Positions 13,003 through 54,637 of a stretch of 64,000 bases of DNA are shown here, piece by piece (within the stretch, counting starts at the first letter, position 1; every line of letters begins with the position of its first letter). The stretch spans positions 2,059-66,058 of the forward strand of contig CAYXNZ010000005.1 of assembly GCA_964467155.1 (NCBI GenBank), written 5' to 3'. The notes beneath the pieces were generated by a model. It saw only the letters and a program-made list of their open reading frames with translations. It searched no databases and was not told where the DNA came from. A program made the position numbers and the translations under genes. The DNA comes from an uncultured Gammaproteobacteria bacterium. GTDB lineage: Bacteria; Patescibacteriota; Patescibacteriia; Patescibacteriales; GWC2-42-12.

Positions 13003-13048
13003 TCGGGGGTCGTTCCGCCTATATTGGCGGAGACAGCTGGTTCCCCTG
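13003..13048 (+). pseudogene. Pseudo 5' half of tRNA-Gln with the D-loop replaced by a GC hairpin
   Basis: TCGGGGGTCGT (identical to the tRNA-Gln 5' end), then the hairpin TCCGCC-tatatt-GGCGGA (13014-13031), then GACAGCTGGTT (identical to the D-stem 3' strand plus anticodon stem), then CCCCTG. Confidence 0.7.
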
Positions 13049-13064: not shown

Positions 13065-13135
13065 TCGGGGGTCGTCTAACGGTAGGACAGCTGGTTTTGG
13101 TCCAGTCAATCGGGGTTCGATTCCCTGCCCCCGAG
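13065..13135 (+). tRNA. tRNA-Gln (anticodon UUG)
   Basis: Manual cloverleaf: acceptor TCGGGGG/CCCCCGA (U1:A72, G73), anticodon stem GCTGG/CCAGT with loop TTTTGGT, T-arm CGGGG-TTCGATT-CCCTG. CCA is not encoded. Confidence 0.85.
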
Positions 13136-13183
13136 CAGATTTTTTAAAAAAAATATCGTTATTTTAAATTTAATATAAATACT

Positions 13184-36701: not shown

Positions 36702-36718
36702 ATTTCTAAATTTTATAA

Positions 36719-36877
36719 CCCCCACCCCAGCCCCTCCAGAGGCGGGCAGGAGTAAACCGTATAAACGTTACTTCCCCCACCCCAGCCCTCCCCCACAACA
36801 AGTTGCGGGAGAGGGAGCACAACATTTACATAGTTCCCTCTCCCGCGAGGAACGAGCGGGGGAGGGTTAGGGAGAGA
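36719..36877. repeat. GC-rich modular palindromic repeat locus A (MITE-like)
   Basis: Contains module ggcaggagtaaaccgtataaacgtta, the left hairpin ccctccccc-acaacaagttgc-gggagaggg, the centre gcacaacatttacatagt, and the right unit CCCTCTCCCGcgaggaacgaGCGGGGGAGGGTTAGGGA (36836-36873). It ends 1 nt before the mscS stop codon. Confidence 0.8.
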
Positions 36878-37732: not shown

Positions 37733-37800
37733 ATTTTTTATATTAATTAATAAATAAATTATTAAGCATCGCTATTTTAGTATATCACAAAACCTTTATA

Positions 37801-38260
37801 TTCCCCCACACCAGCCCCTCCAATTCGGAGGACGGGAGAGGGAGCATATATTTATTATAGTCCCCTCTCCCGTGAGGAACGAACGGGGGAGGCCTGCCCG
37901 CCGAATTGGAGGGGTTAGGGAGGTTAAAATAAGAAAAAAAATAACCCCCTTAATCCCCCTTTACAAGAGGGACAAAATAGTTCCCTCTCCCGTGAGGAAC
38001 GAGCGGGGGAGGGGTTAGGGAGGGGGTTTCTTTCACTTTAGTCCACAAAAACCTAGACTAAAGTCTATATTTTAAATTTCTATTCTGTCATTCTGAGGAT
38101 CTTTATAACCCCCACCCCAACCCTCCCCCACAACAAGTTGCGGGAGAGGGAGCACACATTTGCATAGTTCCCTCTCCCGTGAGGCACGAACGGGGGAGGC
38201 CTGCCCGCCGAATTGGAGGGGTTAGGGAGGGGGTCTCTTATCCCCTCCTTCTCCCCTTTC
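37801..38260. repeat. GC-rich modular palindromic repeat locus B (three right-hand units plus accessory hairpins)
   Basis: Right-hand units lie at 37863-37923 (long variant), 37983-38026 (short) and 38170-38233 (long). The accessory hairpin ccccctttacaagaggg lies in 37941-37980. A gtcattctgaggatc module is at 38088-38101. Confidence 0.8.
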
Positions 38261-46503: not shown

Positions 46504-48252
46504 ATGAAAATACATAAAATTATCTTTTTGGTTACTCTAGGGCTATTGTTAACCGCTTCAACTTGTCTTGCTACCTGGACAATCGATAACGGTATTAGTA
46601 CTGGTAGTGGTGAAGCCATTACTGCTTACGAACCCGTTGCTAGTCCAGCTGCAGGAACATATCATGCTACCCAAAGTGTTATTTTAACAGCTACTGACGC
46701 TTCAGCTATTTGTTATACTATCGATGATAGTGATCCAGATTGCGCGACTGCAACTACTTGTAGTACTGGTACGGTTTATGATTCGGCTATTTCCGTGACC
46801 TTAACGGATACTATTAAAGCTATTTCTTGTTATGATGATAATAGTTATGTTTCTAAGTCTACTGTTGCTACTCATACTTATACTTTAACCTGCACAACCA
46901 GCAGTGTAACCAACGGAACAGTTGGAGCTTATTCGGGTTGTGCTGTTACTTGTAATTCTGGTTATACTTTGAGTGGTAGTACCTGTGTTACTTCCGGCGG
47001 AGGTGGCGGAAGTAGTGGTGGCTCTACAGCTACTGTACCAACCACACAACAAACTTCCATTACAACTACTGATGGAACACAAGTAACTACTTCAACTGAT
47101 ACTACTGGCGGAACCGCTACTGCTACTATTAATACTGTTTCATCCCCTACTAATAGCCAAACAGTTACCCTAGATACTTCCACTGTTGCTGATGCAAGCA
47201 GTGTTTCTGTTGAACTATCTGCTTTAGTTATGCAGGAGCTGGTCGCTGATCATGGCGCTGACATAGACTTAACCGTTAATATTACTAGTCAAACTGCTTC
47301 CTCTGACCAAAGAACAAGTACTGCTCTAGGTACTGGTACATTTTTAGTCGGTCTTGATGTTTTTAATGTAGAAATTCTGGCTGGAGACACTTCTATTACC
47401 AATTTTGACAATCCGCTAACTCTTTCTTTTGATGTTTCAGATATACCAAACCCAGAAAATTTAACTATCTCTTGGTTTGATACAACGCAAAACAAATGGG
47501 TGGATTTAGGTGGTACTCTATATGATGGTGTGCTAACAATTACTGTTAATCACTTAACTGACTTTGCAGTTATTAGAACAGGCACTACTACTGAAACTAC
47601 ACCTGCTACTACCCCTGAAACCAGTCCTACCGCTACCGTCACTACACGTGAACAACAAATCGTAAATATCTTAAATGAATCTTCTCTGATTTTTGATAGT
47701 GGTTATGATTTGACCAATTTACTATCTCATAATGGAGTAGCAGAAAATGCAACCGAACAAACTGCTAGCATGGAAAAATATACCAATACTTTAACTGCCG
47801 ACATGACTGACCTGACAACTGAAAATACTTACTCAATCAACAACTTTATTCTTTATGGTACTCAAACCACGAGAGTATTAGGCGCTGGTGAAAGAGCTGG
47901 TGTGGTTAATTCCTATAAATCAGCCTTTGATAAATTACCAACTACCGCTGATGAATGGGCTGATGTCATTAAAATCGGTAATGGTCGCTGGCCAAGCGAG
48001 GCTAGTCAAACTGCCGAAGATCGAGCAAAAATTAGCTTCAATACAATTTACTTGCGTGAAGCAGACATGGCTAATCCAAATGATAATGCCGCTGTCACCG
48101 TTATGGCCTACGGACTACGACCGGATGCGAGAAATTTAGACAGTGAGAAAGTCGCCATTAAAACCTTCAAAGCAATCTTTGGTTACAACCCAGTCGAAGC
48201 AACTTCTTGGGATGCAGTCAGAGCTATCGCCTACTCAGGTGCTGTGAGATAA
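46504..48252 (+). CDS. Secreted protein with N-terminal chitobiase/hexosaminidase-C-like (Fn3-associated) domain and a conserved C-terminal domain
   Basis: 582 aa with a signal peptide. PAAGTYHATQSVILTATDASAICYTIDDSDP is the typical CHB_HEX_C-like pattern. There are T/S/G-rich linkers. The C-terminal part is ...GAGERAGVVNSYKSAFDKLP...GNGRWP...WDAVRAIAYSGAVR. Confidence 0.75.
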   Translation: MKIHKIIFLVTLGLLLTASTCLATWTIDNGISTGSGEAITAYEPVASPAAGTYHATQSVILTATDASAICYTIDDSDPDCATATTCSTGTVYDSAISVTLTDTIKAISCYDDNSYVSKSTVATHTYTLTCTTSSVTNGTVGAYSGCAVTCNSGYTLSGSTCVTSGGGGGSSGGSTATVPTTQQTSITTTDGTQVTTSTDTTGGTATATINTVSSPTNSQTVTLDTSTVADASSVSVELSALVMQELVADHGADIDLTVNITSQTASSDQRTSTALGTGTFLVGLDVFNVEILAGDTSITNFDNPLTLSFDVSDIPNPENLTISWFDTTQNKWVDLGGTLYDGVLTITVNHLTDFAVIRTGTTTETTPATTPETSPTATVTTREQQIVNILNESSLIFDSGYDLTNLLSHNGVAENATEQTASMEKYTNTLTADMTDLTTENTYSINNFILYGTQTTRVLGAGERAGVVNSYKSAFDKLPTTADEWADVIKIGNGRWPSEASQTAEDRAKISFNTIYLREADMANPNDNAAVTVMAYGLRPDARNLDSEKVAIKTFKAIFGYNPVEATSWDAVRAIAYSGAVR

Positions 48253-48410
48253 AGCTTGCTTGTCCGCCGAAGCTTTAGCGTAGGCGGAGGATGCAGTCAG
48301 AGCGATTGCCTATTCAGGAGCTGTAAGATAAAGCTTGCTTGTCCGCCGAAGCTTTAGCGTAGGCGGAGGATGCAGTCAGAGCTATCGCCTACTCCGGAGC
48401 TGTGAGATAA
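48253..48410 (+). repeat. Two tandem 79-bp units, each a 37-nt GC hairpin spacer plus a copy of the last 13 codons and stop of the upstream gene
   Basis: Spacers at 48253-48289 and 48332-48368 are identical (TCCGCC-N14-GGCGGA). Tail copies at 48290-48331 and 48369-48410 still encode DAVRAIAYSGAVR-stop. Confidence 0.9.
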
Positions 48411-48488: not shown

Positions 48489-48700
48489 ATCCCCCTCCCT
48501 AACCCTCCCCCACCTCGCCGATTCGGCGGGCGGGAGAGGGAGCACGCGTTTGCATAGTTCCCTCTCCCGTGAGGAACGAGCGGGGGAGGGTTAGGGAGGG
48601 GGAAAATCCCCTCTCTTTTTTGTCATTCCCGCGAAAGCGGGAATCCCTGCCCGCCGGCAGGCAGGCAGGAGTAAACTGTATAAACGTTATTTGTTCCATT
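48489..48700. repeat. GC-rich modular palindromic repeat locus C (112-bp MITE-like unit with perfect 21-bp terminal inverted repeats, plus accessory hairpins)
   Basis: ccccctccctaaccctccccc (48491-48511) is the exact reverse complement of gggggagggttagggaggggg (48582-48602). The inner arms are cgggagaggga / tccctctcccg. Downstream lie the hairpin attcccgc-gaaa-gcgggaat (48625-48644) and the module ggcaggagtaaactgtataaacgtta. Confidence 0.85.
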
Positions 48701-48929
48701 TCATATCATGTAATAAATCTCTCCAAGTTGGATTTTCTTTTTTATACTCCATATTTCTACTGCTCTCTCCTGGATCCCCAGTCAAGCTGAGGATGACAAG
48801 CAGAGATTTATTTGTTCCTTAGTTGTACCTAGAGTATAAATGCCAATGATTATTTAGACATTATTTATTCTTTAGACGGTTTGCATTAAAAGCTCCAGTT
48901 AAAAACTGGAGCTAGCGAGGTAACCTAAA

Positions 48930-49101
48930 TACGTCCCCTCTCCCGTGAGGAACGAGCGGGGGAGGGTTAGGGAGGGGGAAGAAATAAAAATTAAAATAAC
49001 CCCCTCAATCCCCCTTTGCAAGGGGGACAAATACGTCCCCTCTCCCGTGAGGAACGAACGGGGGAGGCCTGCCCGCCGGATTGGAGGGGTTAGGGAGGAG
49101 G
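48930..49101. repeat. GC-rich modular repeat locus D (two right-hand units plus the ccccctttgcaaggggg hairpin)
   Basis: Units lie at 48936-48978 (short) and 49038-49101 (long, with a nested cctgcccgccggattggag insert). The hairpin lies in 48996-49030. The locus ends directly at the ftsX stop codon (49102-49104). Confidence 0.8.
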
Positions 49102-50706: not shown

Positions 50707-52311
50707 TTATTGTGTTAATCTCAATAATCCAAATTTAGCTAAATCTTCTGCTTCAAAGAAACTATTATTTCTAGAATTAGCATTCAAGACGACAACTATG
50801 ACTTTGTTATTCCCCTGCTCTGCTCTCAACATTAAACAATAACCCGCCTCATCTAAATATCCGGTTTTTGAACCAGTGATATTTAAATTACTAATATGAA
50901 TTAATAGATTTGTATTTCTAAGTGTATGTTTTTCCTCGGTGTTAATGGTGTAAAAAACATATCTACCCATAGTGCTAGCTTTTTGGATTATGGGATGCTT
51001 AAACAATTCTTTTGTTATTATAGCATAATCCAAAGCTGAACTCACGTTTTCCGGTGATAAACCTGTCGGTTCTACAAATTTAGTAGATACTGTACCCCAA
51101 TTTTTAACCGCTAAATTCATTTGATTAATAAATTCGTCTCTAGCTAGACCACTAACTCTAACCAATGACTCAACTGCATTATTAGCTGACCCGACTAAAG
51201 CCGAATAAACCAAATCTTCAATCGTCAAAGTGTCGCCGTCATTTAATGTCACGCGTGCTGATTCCCATTTATTGCAATATTGATAATTGTATTCCTCATC
51301 TTTAACGCTATAACTTACTTCCCTACTCAATGTTGGACGCATATCCAAAAACACCTTTATCGCCACTAATTTTGTTAAACTAGCAATCGGCAAAGTAGAC
51401 GTAGCTTTCTTTTGCCATAGCACTTCCATTGTAGATTCATCCAATAAAACAGCTGAAACAGCCCCCACGCTAGGATTAAATTCCGCACCAATTTCTGAAA
51501 TACCCAAAACACGTCCATTATCAGAAGCTGTTTCCAGAGACTCTATTCTTACATTAATAATGCCCGCACCAAGTGAAGCAATTTGTTTAAAAGCTACTTT
51601 GTCTAAATCGACCACTCTGTTAGGATGTAATTTTCTTTCTGGACCAAAATCATTAACTTCAACGTCAACAAATTTGTTATTATCTGTATTATAAACCCTT
51701 ATTTTTGAACCTTTTGGAAAATCTGGAGAAGCTGTGTAATTTCCGCCTTTGTAACCATACCAACTTGCCTGACCGATTGCTAAAACATCAGGATTAGAAA
51801 AAACAGCTATTCTGGCAAATGGCAAATGGATCAATGATCTGACAAATTTTTCATCAGGATAATCTTTGGTTGGTAAAGGTCGCCAAGTTGAATAATTTTT
51901 ATCAAAAAAATAAACCTGTTTTAAATAATTAGATTCGTCTTCATATGAAAATTGAATATAAAAAGGTTTATGATCGTCATAGGCTTCTTTATTTTTAAAT
52001 TCAAACTGATAAATATTACTTAATTTTTCTAATTTCCAAGACACATCAATTGTTTCGTTTAGTTTGACAACATCAACGCCTGTCGCCTCGCTTAAAATAC
52101 CCGGCACTAATGACAATTTTATCGAATTATCAAACGCTGAAACAGTATAACCCTTAGCTATCGTCGATTGATCTAAATTAATATGATAAAATTTATTTAA
52201 TTCTTCTGCAATTATTTCTTCACTAGCCACAACAAAATTACCAGCTACAACAGCTAGTAAAATTAAAAATAATAATAAAAATCTTTTCCACATTTGACTG
52301 AATATATACAT
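50707..52311 (-). CDS. Secreted fusion: RlpA-like double-psi beta-barrel domain + D-alanyl-D-alanine carboxypeptidase (peptidase S11)
   Basis: Signal peptide. The RlpA-like segment is GQASWYGYKGGNYTASPDFPKGSKIRVYN..VDVEVNDFGP. The S11 motifs SLTK (SxxK), SANN (SxN) and KTGY (KTG) are present. Confidence 0.8.
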   Translation of the reverse strand: MYIFSQMWKRFLLLFLILLAVVAGNFVVASEEIIAEELNKFYHINLDQSTIAKGYTVSAFDNSIKLSLVPGILSEATGVDVVKLNETIDVSWKLEKLSNIYQFEFKNKEAYDDHKPFYIQFSYEDESNYLKQVYFFDKNYSTWRPLPTKDYPDEKFVRSLIHLPFARIAVFSNPDVLAIGQASWYGYKGGNYTASPDFPKGSKIRVYNTDNNKFVDVEVNDFGPERKLHPNRVVDLDKVAFKQIASLGAGIINVRIESLETASDNGRVLGISEIGAEFNPSVGAVSAVLLDESTMEVLWQKKATSTLPIASLTKLVAIKVFLDMRPTLSREVSYSVKDEEYNYQYCNKWESARVTLNDGDTLTIEDLVYSALVGSANNAVESLVRVSGLARDEFINQMNLAVKNWGTVSTKFVEPTGLSPENVSSALDYAIITKELFKHPIIQKASTMGRYVFYTINTEEKHTLRNTNLLIHISNLNITGSKTGYLDEAGYCLMLRAEQGNNKVIVVVLNANSRNNSFFEAEDLAKFGLLRLTQ

Positions 52312-52396
52312 AACAATATAATTATATCATAAATAATTATAAGCTACGAAATAAAATATTTCTAAACTTAAAATTTTGCAAATTTTAGACAAATTT

Positions 52397-52611
52397 GCGG
52401 GTGTCGTATAATGGTTATTACATCAGCTTCCCAAGCCTAATAAAAATAAATATGCAGGATTAGTACAATGGTAGTACATTTGCTTCCCAAGCAAGAAACA
52501 CGAGTTCGATTCTCGTATCCTGCTCAATCCGGCAGGCAGGCAAGCTGAGAAAGCCAGTCCCCTGCCCGCTCGTGCCTCGCGAGAGGCAGGCGGGGATTCT
52601 GGTCACCCGCT
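52397..52611 (+). pseudogene. Disrupted tRNA-Gly(CCC): the 5' part (52397-52436) and 3' part (52544-52611) are separated by an insertion that contains an intact tRNA-Gly; a 37-nt hairpin sits in the T-loop
   Basis: The 5' part is GCGGGTG-TC-GTATAATGGTTATTAC-A-TCAGC-TTCCCAA-GC. The 3' part is GCTGA-GAAA-GCCAG-T[hairpin 52559-52595]ATT-CTGGT-CACCCGC-T. The acceptor and anticodon stems are complementary across the gap. CAAGC occurs at both junctions. Confidence 0.7.
52454..52524 (+). tRNA. tRNA-Gly (anticodon CCC)
   Basis: Manual cloverleaf: GCAGGAT/ATCCTGC acceptor, D-arm GTAC-AATGGTA-GTAC, anticodon stem TTTGC/GCAAG with loop TTCCCAA, T-arm ACGAG-TTCGATT-CTCGT. CCA is not encoded. Confidence 0.85.
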
Positions 52612-52620
52612 CAAATATAA

Positions 52621-52693
52621 GCCGACCTAGCTCAACTGGTAGAGCAACGGTATCGTAAACCGTAGGTTGTGGGTTCAATTCCCACGGTCGGCT
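52621..52693 (+). tRNA. tRNA-Thr (anticodon CGU)
   Basis: Manual cloverleaf: GCCGACC/GGTCGGC acceptor, D-arm GCTC-AACTGGTA-GAGC, anticodon stem ACGGT/ACCGT with loop ATCGTAA, T-arm GTGGG-TTCAATT-CCCAC. CCA is not encoded. Confidence 0.85.
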
Positions 52694-52700
52694 CAAATAA

Positions 52701-52820
52701 ACGGTATCGCCCGCCCGCAACGACTTACGTCTTGCGGAAGTCGAGCGGGTAAACCGTAGGTTGTGGGTTCCCTGCCCGCTCGTGCCTCGCAGAGGCAGGC
52801 GGGAATTCCCACGGTCGGCT
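52701..52820 (+). pseudogene. Partial tRNA-Thr copy A (anticodon stem to 3' end) with a 40-nt hairpin inside the anticodon and a 33-nt hairpin in the T-loop
   Basis: ACGGTATCG[52710-52749]TAAACCGTAGGTTGTGGGTTC[52771-52803]AATTCCCACGGTCGGCT. Apart from the two inserts it is identical to tRNA-Thr positions 27-73. Confidence 0.8.
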
Positions 52821-52827
52821 CAAATAA

Positions 52828-52947
52828 ACGGTATCGCCCGCCCGCAACGACTTACGTCTTGCGGAAGTCGAGCGGGTAAACCGTAGGTTGTGGGTTCCCT
52901 GCCCGCTCGTGCCTCGCAGAGGCAGGCGGGAATTCCCACGGTCGGTT
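52828..52947 (+). pseudogene. Partial tRNA-Thr copy B (second 127-bp tandem unit)
   Basis: Same structure as copy A, with inserts at 52837-52876 and 52898-52930. There is one C>T change in the acceptor 3' strand (GGTCGGT). Confidence 0.8.
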
Positions 52948-52954
52948 CAAATAA

Positions 52955-53047
52955 ACAGTGCTGGATCCGGGCTTTGTCCGGAGCTATAGTGAAATTTTAC
53001 CCGTCCGAATCCGCCAACTGGCGGAATATGCGGGCCCACGGTCGGTT
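52955..53047 (+). pseudogene. Third, more degraded tRNA-Thr 3'-end remnant preceded by other GC hairpins
   Basis: Ends in CCCACGGTCGGTT (the T-stem 3' strand plus acceptor). Upstream are the hairpins TCCGG-gctttgt-CCGGA and TCCGCC-aact-GGCGGA (53010-53025). Confidence 0.55.
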
Positions 53048-53065
53048 CAGAAATAATCATATAAT

Positions 53066-53098
53066 AAAAAATAATCCATGAAAAATGGATTATTTTTT
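53066..53098. terminator. Bidirectional rho-independent terminator
   Basis: aaaaa-ataatccat-gaaaa-atggattat-ttttt. Confidence 0.7.
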
Positions 53099-53107
53099 AT
53101 TATATGA

Positions 53108-54637
53108 TTATTTCACTAAACTAAAAATTTTAGCATTTCTTATTTGATTATCTATATATTCATTAAAACTTAACCCTTTTACAAAAATAAATCTCAAACC
53201 TGAAGAATTTTCTCTTTGTCCGTATTTAAATAAAATATAATAACCATTATCTTTAATAATAACTTCACTGATTTGATTTACTTCTAAACCCAAAGCCACC
53301 CTGCCAAATCGTTCCAAAATATCATTTTCATTTAGATAATCGCCATAACTAGAACTATCTGCGTATTTTTTTACTTCATCAATAGTTTGGCCTAATTGCA
53401 TTTTCTTTCTCATGTCATTAATTCTAGCTATACCGATTTGATTATAATCTTCATCCATTAAAAAATTAGAATTTAATATTTGTTCGAGAGGTTTTTGAGA
53501 AATTTTTGTCAAAAAATATTTTTCTGTAAATTCTTTTATTATTAAATCTTTTATCATCTTGTTATCCATGACTTCTGATGCAAATTGGGAATATTGATTA
53601 TCATATTCTTTTACATAGTCAATATAATCATAAAAATCTACTGAACCAACATTACTTACAATTGCTGGGATAAAAATATAATCATTAATTTTTCTTAAAC
53701 ATTTGTTGTCAATCTTAAAAATTATTAATAATGAAAAAAGTATAAAATATAAAAATATAAAAATAATCAAAATCATTATCAAAAACTTAAAAAAAAATTT
53801 TTTGGCTTTATACAAAAACCTAATTCCATAAAAAAGTGTTGTTGTTACCCAATTTTTAATATTTAACTTTAAAGCCTTTAATTTTCGAATTCTTCTATTT
53901 TTATTTCTTCGTCTGTCTTTGGTCTTTTTTTTCATTGCTTCTATCTTTATTCCCACCTCTATTTCAGTTTTCTCTTTTTTTTCCCGCTCCAACTGCTCTT
54001 TAGCTAATTGTTTTTGTCTCGCTATACCTACTTTTAACTTTATTTTTCCTAATTTTAAATCTTCTCTTTTTTTTAATCTCTTTTCTTCTTCCTCTCTTTC
54101 TCGCTTTTTTAATTCTTCTTTTATTCTTTCCTTTTCTCTTTTTTCTCTCTCTTTCTTTCTGGCTTGTTTCTCTTTTTTTATTTTTTTATCTTCTTCATTT
54201 TTTAATTTTTCTTCCAATATTCTTGTTTTTTGTGCTTTTTCTATTTCTTCTTTTTTTCTTTCGATAACCTCTTTTTCTTCTTGATGTCTTTTATTCTCTT
54301 CATCTAAAATTTTTTTTCTAGCATCTCTTTGTTTTTCAATTGCCTCTTTTATTCTTTCCTTTTCTGCTCTTTCGTTTAATGCCTTTTCTTCTTGCAATTT
54401 TTTCTGTTTTTCTTTTTCAATAATCTTTTCCTGACGTTTTAGCTCTGTCTTCATTTTTTCTTTTTCTTCCTTTGACAAAACACCATCAACCTTAGAGATT
54501 AACTTCTTCTGTGAATCTTTTGACAATAAATTCTTCCTCGTCTTGTCTTGCTCGCCAATATATTTCAATAAGACATTTCTTGATTTTTTTAATTCTTCCG
54601 AATTTATTTTTTTTATACTATCAACGTCTTTGTTCAT
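53108..54637 (-). CDS. Membrane protein with K/E-rich cytoplasmic N-terminus and extracytoplasmic parvulin/PrsA-like (PPIase-like) domain
   Basis: 509 aa. About 240 aa of charged coiled coil are followed by one TM (FLIMILIIFIFLYFILFSLLIIF). The C-terminal ..YADSSSYGDYLNENDILERFGRVALGLEVNQISEVIIKDNGYYILFK resembles a degenerate PpiC-type domain. Confidence 0.55.
   Translation of the reverse strand: MNKDVDSIKKINSEELKKSRNVLLKYIGEQDKTRKNLLSKDSQKKLISKVDGVLSKEEKEKMKTELKRQEKIIEKEKQKKLQEEKALNERAEKERIKEAIEKQRDARKKILDEENKRHQEEKEVIERKKEEIEKAQKTRILEEKLKNEEDKKIKKEKQARKKEREKREKERIKEELKKREREEEEKRLKKREDLKLGKIKLKVGIARQKQLAKEQLEREKKEKTEIEVGIKIEAMKKKTKDRRRNKNRRIRKLKALKLNIKNWVTTTLFYGIRFLYKAKKFFFKFLIMILIIFIFLYFILFSLLIIFKIDNKCLRKINDYIFIPAIVSNVGSVDFYDYIDYVKEYDNQYSQFASEVMDNKMIKDLIIKEFTEKYFLTKISQKPLEQILNSNFLMDEDYNQIGIARINDMRKKMQLGQTIDEVKKYADSSSYGDYLNENDILERFGRVALGLEVNQISEVIIKDNGYYILFKYGQRENSSGLRFIFVKGLSFNEYIDNQIRNAKIFSLVK

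Follow-up and report, generated by a model that had tools for sequence, protein, structure and literature searches.

How does a complete tRNA gene come to lie inside another tRNA gene with the same anticodon? This question is raised by a 64-kb stretch of contig CAYXNZ010000005.1 (64,000 nucleotides, referred to here as the window). In it, an earlier examination of the letters without database searches (the sequence-only reading) had noticed, at positions 52397-52611, an intact tRNA-Gly(CCC) gene nested between the two halves of a second one, and had proposed that a tRNA gene was destroyed and simultaneously replaced by an isoacceptor that arrived with the insertion. Comparison with related sequences supports the destruction of the outer gene and its replacement by an incoming isoacceptor, and we infer that the two were simultaneous. 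In the explanation that we prefer, to which we give a probability of about three in four, a resident gene of allele type O1 was split by a cassette bringing an allele of another type (I), DNA of foldback shape enters the tips of hairpins in loop-coding DNA, and selection keeps those hits that restore the tRNA.

Organization of the nested tRNA-Gly genes

Rereading of positions 52100-53200 upheld all of the coordinates that had been assigned to the nested tRNA-Gly region. The genes, fragments and inserts of this locus lie on the plus strand. The outer, O1-type tRNA-Gly(CCC) gene begins with a 5′ part (GCGGGTGTCGTATAATGGTTATTACATCAGCTTCCCAAGC, 52397-52436) comprising the acceptor 5′ strand, the D arm, the 5′ strand of the anticodon stem and the loop through the pentanucleotide CAAGC; divided by structural element, it reads GCGGGTG-TC-GTAT-AATGGTTA-TTAC-A-TCAGC-TTCCCAA-GC. 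This left CAAGC (52432-52436) represents anticodon-loop positions 36-38 and stem positions 39-40. It is followed by an AT-rich leader of 17 nt (52437-52453), recognized by sequence reading, an intact I-type tRNA-Gly(CCC) gene in the same orientation as the outer gene (52454-52524), and a GC-rich tail of 16 nt (caatccggcaggcagg, 52525-52540), similar to the 3′ half of a palindromic GC-rich repeat that the window contains at another place. The right CAAGC (52541-52545) opens the outer 3′ part (52541-52611), composed of the 3′ strand of the anticodon stem, the variable loop, an interrupted T arm, the acceptor 3′ strand and the discriminator base (CAAGC-TGA-GAAA-GCCAG-TCC[34 nt]GATT-CTGGT-CACCCGC-T). 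The interruption amounts to 104 nt without an open reading frame (ORF), and the break falls within anticodon positions 35/36 to 40/41.

The inner gene was called as tRNA-Gly(CCC) by ARAGORN and scored 69.3 bits against the Rfam family RF00005 (gathering score 29); it is presumed to be functional. The unmodified outer gene (52397-52611) matched no Rfam family even at an E-value of 10, and ARAGORN with its intron option, applied to the unmodified locus, called the inner gene and left the outer one uncalled. The joined outer halves were recognized by ARAGORN as a 72-nt tRNA-Gly(CCC) only once the 34-nt insert in the T loop had also been deleted.

The T-loop hairpin had been attributed to the outer gene. 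An insert is indeed present (34 nt, 52561-52594, after T-loop position 56), but it is not a feature of the gene itself: it is a separate insertion, later or independent, of a widespread 33-nt GC-rich element, designated E, here in an AGAGG-type variant with one extra G. According to the predicted fold, the T stem of the outer gene is lengthened by the hairpin of E.

The CAAGC sequences had been regarded as a 5-bp target-site duplication. The repeat is real and recurs in a related locus (L259, see below), but its right copy may partly belong to the insert, since 14 of 15 bases agree between the tail plus CA and a GC-rich repeat of the window (48653-48667). The actual duplication might measure 3-5 bp, or CAAGC could be a shared core instead of a transposase footprint. 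A search for further copies of the leader and tail gave no leader like that of the window cassette among the relatives' loci compared, and only partial likenesses of the tail: CCGGCAGGCAGG also occurs at 48654-48665 of the window, and the tail begins with CAATCC, a sequence also present in the trailer of the L247 gene. The wider segment 48641-48667 also resembles the tail.

The nested region is base-for-base identical in five independently assembled metagenome contigs (four from the JGI samples 3300025642, 3300005932, 3300025669 and 3300005915, of Antarctic-lake type, and one from ENA), which rules out an assembly chimera. The stretch shared by the O1 and I alleles around the anticodon comprises 11 identical bases, below any assembler k-mer.

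The uninterrupted gene in related genomes

The genes bordering the locus encode bacterial envelope and division proteins, i.e. a DPBB/D-Ala-D-Ala carboxypeptidase (referred to as PBP), FtsE, FtsX, DivIC and a P-type ATPase. The gene order ATPase-DivIC-hypothetical-[tRNA-Thr, tRNA-Gly]-PBP-FtsE-FtsX is preserved among relatives, and this allowed the locus to be compared in ten of them, designated by L numbers. A tree of PBP sequences places the window together with L245 and L246, whose PBPs are about 80% identical to that of the window in amino acids.

The syntenic site of L245 carries an uninterrupted outer-type tRNA-Gly(CCC) gene (GCGGGTGTCGTATAATGGTTATTACATCAGCTTCCCAAGCTGAGAAAGCCAGTTCAATTCTGGTCACCCGCT) that scores 59.8 bits as a tRNA. 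The outer 5′ part of the window agrees with it at 40 of 40 bases, and of the 72 positions in the joined halves 70 agree, far more than chance would give; this match and the ARAGORN call bear out the proposal that the joined halves are a genuine tRNA. Both differences lie in the T loop, which reads TTCAATT in L245 and TCCGATT in the window. Since TCCGATT is also the T loop of intact genes in other relatives, they represent allelic variation, not damage. The apparently intact tRNA-Gly(CCC) genes with this loop (L250, L251, L253 and L255) have a C at the nearly universal U55 (pseudouridine).

In L246 an uninterrupted outer-type gene is followed by tRNA-Thr, with no inner gene, and on a second contig of the same assembly tRNA-Thr is followed directly by a terminator. 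By this comparison, the plain state Gly-Thr-terminator exists in the clade of the window, and the rest of the window arrangement appears as a gain. The empty site that the insertion hypothesis called for is therefore available in two close relatives. A tandem pair of complete tRNA-Gly genes, which the sequence-only reading had named as the state that would speak for a simple local rearrangement, is absent from all ten related loci.

Origin of the inner allele and age of the insertion

An alignment of the inner and outer tRNA-Gly genes shows identity at only 54 of 73 positions, and the two are of different allele types. Type I (GCAGGATTAGTACAATGGTAGTAC...) is the sole tRNA-Gly(CCC) at the locus in the more distant L250, L251 and L253. 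In L252, L255 and L258 the locus holds a third type, O2 (GCGGGTATAG...), and the clade of the window has O1 as its resident allele. Such a combination of a broken own-clade allele with an intact allele typical of other clades fits an arrival of the inner gene from outside. A phage as its source was rejected, as the D-arm motif of the gene matches only two unrelated phage tRNA arrays (Gly-TCC and Thr-GGT).

These differences also bear on a purely local origin, in which two tandem duplications (leader plus 5′ half, and 3′ half plus trailer) would have occurred around one gene and the central copy would then have diverged or undergone gene conversion. Partial tandem duplications do occur here: the tRNA-Thr units described below are explicable by slippage at the microhomology AAAC(G/A)GT, and a tRNA-Gln fragment of the window is identical to the neighboring intact gene in its tRNA-derived parts. 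Such an origin nevertheless seems quite unlikely to us, given two genes of different allele types, a leader and a tail unlike the flanks of the outer gene, and a plain single gene in close relatives. Moreover, the halves, with their 5-nt overlap, make up exactly one gene, which would be rare for two independent breakpoints.

The PBP genes of the window and L245 share 77% nucleotide identity, or 58% at third codon positions, and the intergenic DNA past the promoter aligns poorly between them. Among the 66 bases of the outer gene outside the T loop there are zero substitutions. We infer that the events are recent relative to the L245 split, or else that the broken outer genes (shells) are constrained; recency is preferred in view of the visible decay of shells in other relatives.

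Nested tRNA genes elsewhere in the clade

The locus in L259, whose PBP is 65% identical and belongs to a different clade, contains three layers of tRNA-Gly(CCC) (L259:1841-3000, minus strand). The outermost is an O1 shell broken at the same site as in the window, with CAAGC on both sides of a 279-nt insert whose ends are inverted repeats (CCCGCACC...GGTGCGGG) and whose content is unrelated to the window cassette. This shell has a further 93-nt palindrome in its variable region, and after removal of the 279-nt and 93-nt inserts it is called as tRNA-Gly(CCC) by ARAGORN. The middle layer is an O2-like gene whose T loop lacks about 6 nt. A 34-nt hairpin occupies position 35/36 of this gene, and inserted into its T loop are 119 nt that in turn constitute an intact tRNA-Gly(CCC) (72.9 bits) bracketed by inverted repeats. 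L259 also has an intact tRNA-Thr(CGT), flanked by CCCACACCTTTT and AAAAGGTGTGGG, inside a degenerate tRNA-Thr.

Two further traces were found in L247. A 35-nt 5′ fragment of an O2 tRNA-Gly (L247:4926-4960, minus strand) lies just upstream of the intact Gly gene; the intact genes of L252, L255 and L258 open with exactly the same sequence, and the junction of the fragment (TTCCC/CGCCTGC) is the same as in L259. At L247:8905-9510, a tRNA-Gln is nested in a degenerate tRNA-Gln that is broken at position 35/36, has palindromes in its D loop and is decayed at its 3′ end. The window itself holds a 5′ fragment of tRNA-Gln(TTG) (13003-13042), 22 nt upstream of an intact tRNA-Gln (13065-13136), in which the D loop is replaced by an 18-nt palindrome (TCCGCCTATATTGGCGGA); the tRNA-derived parts of this fragment do not differ from the intact gene.

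In seven cases out of seven the inner gene has the same anticodon and the same orientation as its shell, and the order of the layers is consistent everywhere, with O1 enclosing O2 and O2 enclosing I or type 3. At the loci of other relatives, displaced 3′ fragments, in part from foreign alleles and each with GC-rich inserts, lie behind an intact tRNA. To judge from these sequences, the window nest is one instance of a recurrent process that hits several tRNAs in the clade and goes together with a family of very small GC-rich palindromes, of which E is shared by several phyla.

The tRNA-Thr of the closest relative (L245:1-50, minus strand) has its D loop interrupted by another GC-rich element (CCTGCCCGCCATCGCC...), right at the contig end. 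Contigs L002, L005, L245, L246, L254 and L260 all end at this locus. Shells and fragments of this kind would confuse the tRNA counts used to assess genome completeness, and contigs break at such loci.

Split genes, introns and the fate of the outer gene

Separated tRNA halves are known from archaea (Nanoarchaeum, Caldivirga) and red algae (Cyanidioschyzon), in which split, permuted or multi-intron tRNA genes are the only copy and their halves are joined via a bulge-helix-bulge (BHB) motif by the splicing endonuclease. The arrangement described here is similar in that the halves are separated in the DNA and the breaks lie in the anticodon and other loops. It differs in its bacterial host, the lack of a BHB motif and the complete gene of the same anticodon within the gap. 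The ends of the insert (CTAATAAA... and ...GGCAGGCAGG) are not complementary, so no BHB can form, and the neighboring genes (FtsEX, DivIC, PBP) are bacterial; a BHB intron or split tRNA was rejected on these grounds.

Group I introns have been described in the anticodon loops of Patescibacteria tRNA genes, at position 35/36, with a length of 184-894 nt and a U at the 5′ splice site, and are missed by standard finders (PMC13011429). The inserts reported here share with them the phylum, position 35/36 in several cases and their escape from standard tRNA finders. In contrast to these introns, which match the intron model and follow U, they are 34-279 nt long, follow C or G and give no match to the model. 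At the window nest there is no U before the insert at any possible junction between 35/36 and 40/41. A group I intron was discarded on the basis of the lack of an Intron_gpI match in the window or its relatives, the short insert and the wrong 5′ exon base.

The nest could also be functional as a whole: the inner tRNA would be cut out by RNase P and RNase Z, and the outer halves would be joined, or would persist under selection as a two-piece or structured RNA. The stems of the outer gene are all intact, both in the window and in the L259 O1 shell, and the sequence outside the T loop is unchanged despite saturated synonymous divergence from L245. In addition, the outer acceptor stem is kept in the predicted fold of the whole transcript, and stems are avoided by inserts. 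We nonetheless regard a functional nest as highly improbable. The 34-nt hairpin would abolish the core formed by the T and D loops, and the products of RNase P and RNase Z (3′-OH and 5′-P ends, with overhangs of 17 and 16 nt) are unfit for exact rejoining. A tRNA with this anticodon is already available from the inner gene, other shells (the O2-like and Thr shells of L259 and the Gln shell of L247) are decaying, and the locus carries neither a BHB motif nor a group I intron signal.

tRNA-Thr fragments downstream of the nest

An intact tRNA-Thr(CGT) gene (52621-52693; 68.9 bits), one base different from the L246 gene, follows the nested region. Downstream of it, two units were distinguished, each consisting of the 3′ two-thirds of tRNA-Thr with two inserts. 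Unit 1 (52701-52822) extends from the anticodon stem to the 3′ end; 39 nt (52710-52748) are inserted into its anticodon loop at position 35/36, and its T loop is interrupted after position 56 by element E (52771-52803). Unit 2 (52828-52949) was identified by repeat comparison: in a 127-nt register, segments 52677-52803 and 52804-52930 are 100% identical, and just past this register unit 2 reads GGTCGGTTCA and unit 1 GGTCGGCTCA. The tRNA-derived parts of the units are the same as in the intact gene, except that unit 2 has a single C-to-T change at its 3′ end.

A third, older remnant (52950-53049) is composed of hairpins not derived from tRNA, including the palindrome TCCGCCAACTGGCGGA, and of inverted repeats, and terminates in the T-stem 3′ strand and acceptor 3′ strand of tRNA-Thr (CCCACGGTCGGTTCA). 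The metagenome contigs that share the nested Gly region have one 127-nt unit instead of two, and the L246 genome is devoid of any Thr fragments or remnant.

Element E and its distribution

The 34-nt insert of the outer tRNA-Gly and the 33-nt insert of each tRNA-Thr fragment are the same element, E, which in both tRNAs entered after T-loop position 56 (TCC^GATT and TTC^AATT). Its copies in the window (52561-52594, 52771-52803 and 52898-52930) are confined to this locus. Exact matches to its first 20 bases (CCTGCCCGCTCGTGCCTCGC) were found in >119 contigs of species-representative genomes and >120 metagenome contigs, both counts being lower bounds, i.e. at least these numbers. The hosts among the genome matches listed are Desulfobacterales, other Desulfobacterota, several classes of Patescibacteria, Nitrospinaceae, Actinomycetota and Pseudomonadota. 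The modal form is a 33-mer (CCTGCCCGCTCGTGCCTCGCAGTGGCAGGCGGG) that accounts for 121 of the 184 copies among the matches listed; these copies have 152 distinct pairs of flanks and vary mostly in the apical loop.

Element E has the characteristics of repetitive extragenic palindromic (REP)-like sequences: it is a short imperfect palindrome with many dispersed copies, variable flanks and a predicted hairpin fold. No match to it was found in IMG/VR, PLSDB or GenBank phages, and a phage or plasmid sequence was rejected on this basis. It matched no Rfam family. A known RNA family was also rejected for the hairpins and the contexts of E, as 20 E-bearing loci gave only an unrelated cobalamin riboswitch. 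Published text searched for the sequence of E yielded chance matches only.

Outside the window, none of the 184 other copies listed lies within a detectable tRNA, even after in silico deletion of the element, so E was dismissed as a general invader of tRNA loops. Copies elsewhere are located between complementary flanks in 12.5% of cases, compared with 5.3% for the control, a weak enrichment. None of the remaining inserts of the window (the 39-mer, the cassette tail and the hairpins of the third Thr unit) was found in 1.6 Mb of fetched loci, in which the small palindrome TCCGCC-N4-GGCGGA is the sole such insert that does recur.

Insertion sites and the search for an enzyme

Whatever their size, the inserts occupy loop apexes, namely position 35/36, the site after position 56, the D loop and the variable region; stems are hardly ever hit. 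Position 35/36 hosts the Thr 39-mer, the break of the L247 tRNA-Gln and the hairpin of the O2-like gene; the site after position 56 hosts E in two tRNAs. Junctions are irregular, with a repeat of 0-5 nt or a loss of 0-6 nt: there is a 5-nt repeat in both O1 nests, none at the small hairpins, and a loss of about 6 nt in two L259 shells. This irregularity fits an end-joining-like capture better than a precise enzyme.

None of the 38 window ORFs scanned encodes a transposase, integrase, reverse transcriptase or Y1/RAYT (REP-associated tyrosine transposase) domain, and no integrase or element genes are present among the called genes of the ten related loci. An insertion 3′ of CAAGC would be compatible with the IS200/IS605 or REP/RAYT type; a PF01797-type match is lacking in the 64-kb window.

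One possibility, which we regard as tentative, is that the tRNA-Gly(CCC) cassette is mobile and non-autonomous, and that an enzyme acting in trans inserts it next to the CAAGC of the anticodon loop of its own isoacceptor. Candidates are a Y1 transposase of the IS200/IS605 type, cutting 3′ of the pentanucleotide, and an integron-like tyrosine recombinase with folded single strands as its substrate; the CAAGC repeat would then be a shared core and not a fill-in footprint. This proposal sharpens the preferred explanation and does not oppose it. It would account for two unrelated inserts at the identical O1 position with CAAGC, in the window and in L259, which belong to different PBP clades, the former with un-nested O1 genes within its own clade. 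The L247 cassette also ends in GCAAGC, though no O-type 3′ half follows it, and the reconstituted L259 junction (GGTGCGGGG-CAAGC-CCCGCACC) is palindromic around the core, like the core sites of recombinases. On the other hand, the window ORFs offer no candidate enzyme, and the window cassette lacks inverted ends. The flanks differ wholly between the cases, with nothing in common past CAAGC, the right CAAGC may derive in part from the GC tail, and the Thr and Gln nests show deletions instead of a clean core.

In a stronger form of this idea, which is doubtful at present, tRNA genes would be self-replacing mobile cassettes: a complete gene, folded back by its acceptor stem and the inverted repeats beside it, would enter site-specifically at the apex of the anticodon loop (or T loop) of the resident gene with the same anticodon, kill it and substitute for it, and the same hairpin-tip-targeting machinery would move E and its relatives. 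If this were true, the newcomer could not be lost and would leave behind a stratigraphy of dead alleles, and the identical core of E in several phyla would imply ongoing spread between phyla.

The anticodon and T loops of tRNA genes are classical integrase targets. This makes conceivable a decayed classical integration, i.e. a larger tyrosine-integrase element with its own tRNA-Gly, inserted at the anticodon loop and later deleted down to 104 nt; similar events would have left the tRNA-Thr 3′ fragments as displaced attR remnants. Direct repeats of the 3′ end after an intact tRNA are indeed common in relatives (26 nt, exact, in L255; a foreign Thr allele in L252). We consider this history unlikely. 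Such elements carry the 3′ part of a tRNA, not a full second gene, and are expected to leave an intact hybrid and a 3′ fragment, not two halves around a full gene. The repeat is only 5 bp long, the window ORFs scanned and the ten related loci contain no integrase or element genes, and time and again a deletion would have had to stop no more than 16 nt from the junction. An element-supplied tRNA 3′ part with matching att repeats is not seen in the Gly cassette, whereas the downstream Thr fragments do resemble this pattern.

Proposed course of events

The preferred explanation, i.e. foldback insertion with selection for restoring hits, builds on the insertion and its empty site, the intact inner gene, the nests of relatives, the loop-apex positions and the recency of the events. 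A cassette of 104 nt with a complete, co-oriented tRNA-Gly(CCC) split the resident O1 gene at the DNA level, and allele I, transcribed from the existing upstream promoter, would have taken over decoding. The outer gene, by then a dead shell, would tolerate a further hit, by element E in its T loop. In the same lineage the 3′ two-thirds of tRNA-Thr were duplicated, and the redundant copies took up E and, at position 35/36, the 39-nt hairpin.

The inserted pieces would be foldback-shaped, either GC-rich palindromes or tRNA genes bracketed by inverted repeats. Ordinary tRNA genes have repeats of this kind as well, e.g. AATATCAA...TTGATATT around the Gly gene of L252. The targets of the inserts, the tips of hairpin-forming, loop-coding DNA, suggest a structure-directed process on single-stranded or extruded DNA. 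The route may be break-and-capture, or a structure-targeting recombinase or transposase may act in trans. A hit in a needed tRNA gene would survive only if the insert restored the same tRNA, and this selection would lead to the matching anticodons of shell and core. Successive replacements would leave older alleles as outer shells, in the fashion of a Russian doll, and a redundant gene would collect further palindromes.

Several points weigh against this explanation. The targeting of loops is not a general property of E, as follows from its absence from tRNAs elsewhere and the weak flank enrichment. No mobility gene was found in the 38 ORFs scanned of the 64-kb window. The window cassette is without terminal inverted repeats, unlike the L259 cassettes, whose ends differ from case to case; a MITE or cut-and-paste transposon would be expected to share such repeats with the other members of its family. 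Unrelated cassettes at the same O1 site with the same CAAGC (the right copy in the window overlapping a GC-rich repeat motif) argue for a site-specific reaction, not random break-and-capture. Finally, the perfect stems of the outer shells could reflect selection on RNA structure and not recency.

If the process is a regular one, it would represent a route of tRNA gene turnover and of horizontal allele sweeps in bacteria with tiny genomes. It would follow a "destroy and replace" selfish logic without a toxin or nuclease gene in the element, and successive alleles would be recorded as readable fossils.

Comparison with known elements

Elements that integrate into tRNA genes resemble the nest in their target (anticodon or T loop), in the restoration of function by the incoming DNA and in the pile-up of fragments of old copies beside an intact gene. 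They differ from it in that here a full gene of the same anticodon arrived in 104 nt with no integrase and a 5-bp repeat, and the halves of the old gene flank the new one.

Intervening sequences (IVS) of bacterial 23S and 16S rRNA genes are reportedly stem-loops at helix tips, patchily distributed among close relatives and of unexplained origin. Like them, the inserts of the window are extra stem-loops at the apex of conserved RNA hairpins. In contrast, rRNA with an IVS is functional after excision by RNase III, whereas the tRNA genes and fragments that host the inserts described here appear dead, and one insert is a working tRNA gene.

The occurrence of E across Desulfobacterales, Patescibacteria, Nitrospinaceae and Actinomycetota could serve as a handle on the machinery that moves very small palindromes; what moves them has, to our knowledge, been a standing question since REP and similar repeats were described. 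Rickettsia palindromic elements, yeast mitochondrial GC clusters and cyanobacterial small dispersed repeats are likewise short, GC-rich, imperfect and non-autonomous palindromes, dispersed in AT-rich or compact genomes. REPINs are short, GC-rich, non-autonomous palindromes that insert into or next to one another (PMC3116915). Element E differs from REPs and REPINs in its distribution and surroundings: REPs are lineage-specific and mobilized by RAYT, while the core of E crosses phyla, the window ORFs include no RAYT, and in the window E occurs only in tRNA-derived T loops.

By analogy, the logic of the process seems closest to that of tRNA-rebuilding integrative elements, and its anatomy closest to rRNA IVS hairpins and REP/REPIN-like palindromes. 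The full-text literature searched, with incomplete coverage, contained no account of bacterial tRNA genes that share an anticodon and lie one within the other; it offered only a tRNA-Sec inside selB and unrelated uses of the wording.

Operon structure and further features of the window

The locus is a tRNA-Gly(CCC)/tRNA-Thr(CGT) operon of a Falkowbacteria-like member of Patescibacteria. The nearest named homologues of the PBP are those of Candidatus Falkowbacteria and other Patescibacteria, and the G+C content of the window is about 33%. A promoter-like site, TTGACT-17-TATAAT (52294-52322, plus strand), which agrees with the consensus at 11 of 12 positions, is the likely start of the operon; its TATAAT block (aacaatataattata) is kept upstream of tRNA-Gly in all relatives. 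A perfect AT-rich inverted repeat of 30 bp (53050-53114) is a likely bidirectional terminator closing the operon, and a homologous hairpin is located directly 3′ of tRNA-Thr in the L246 genome. Given the promoter-like site upstream and the inverted repeat downstream, segment 52397-53049 is probably a single transcript.

Small genes of the PF05635 family (23S rRNA intervening-sequence protein/Avd-like four-helix bundle) occur between PBP and FtsE in L247 (L247:6639-7040) and near the locus in L245 (L245:5059-5412). The corresponding place in the window has none, so these genes look mobile.

Clusters of GC-rich repeats (CCCTCTCCCGTGAGGAACGAGCGGGGGAGGGTTAGGGAGGGGG and relatives) are located at 36718-36867, 37800-38235 and 48490-49100 of the window, where they flank ORFs of 2563 and 582 aa and an MscS gene. 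About three tandem copies of a unit of approximately 62 nt (…gatgcagtcagagc.atcgcctactc.gg.gctgtgagataaagcttgcttgtccgccgaagctttagcgtaggcggag…) are present at 48200-48400, across the stop codon of ORF 46504-48252.

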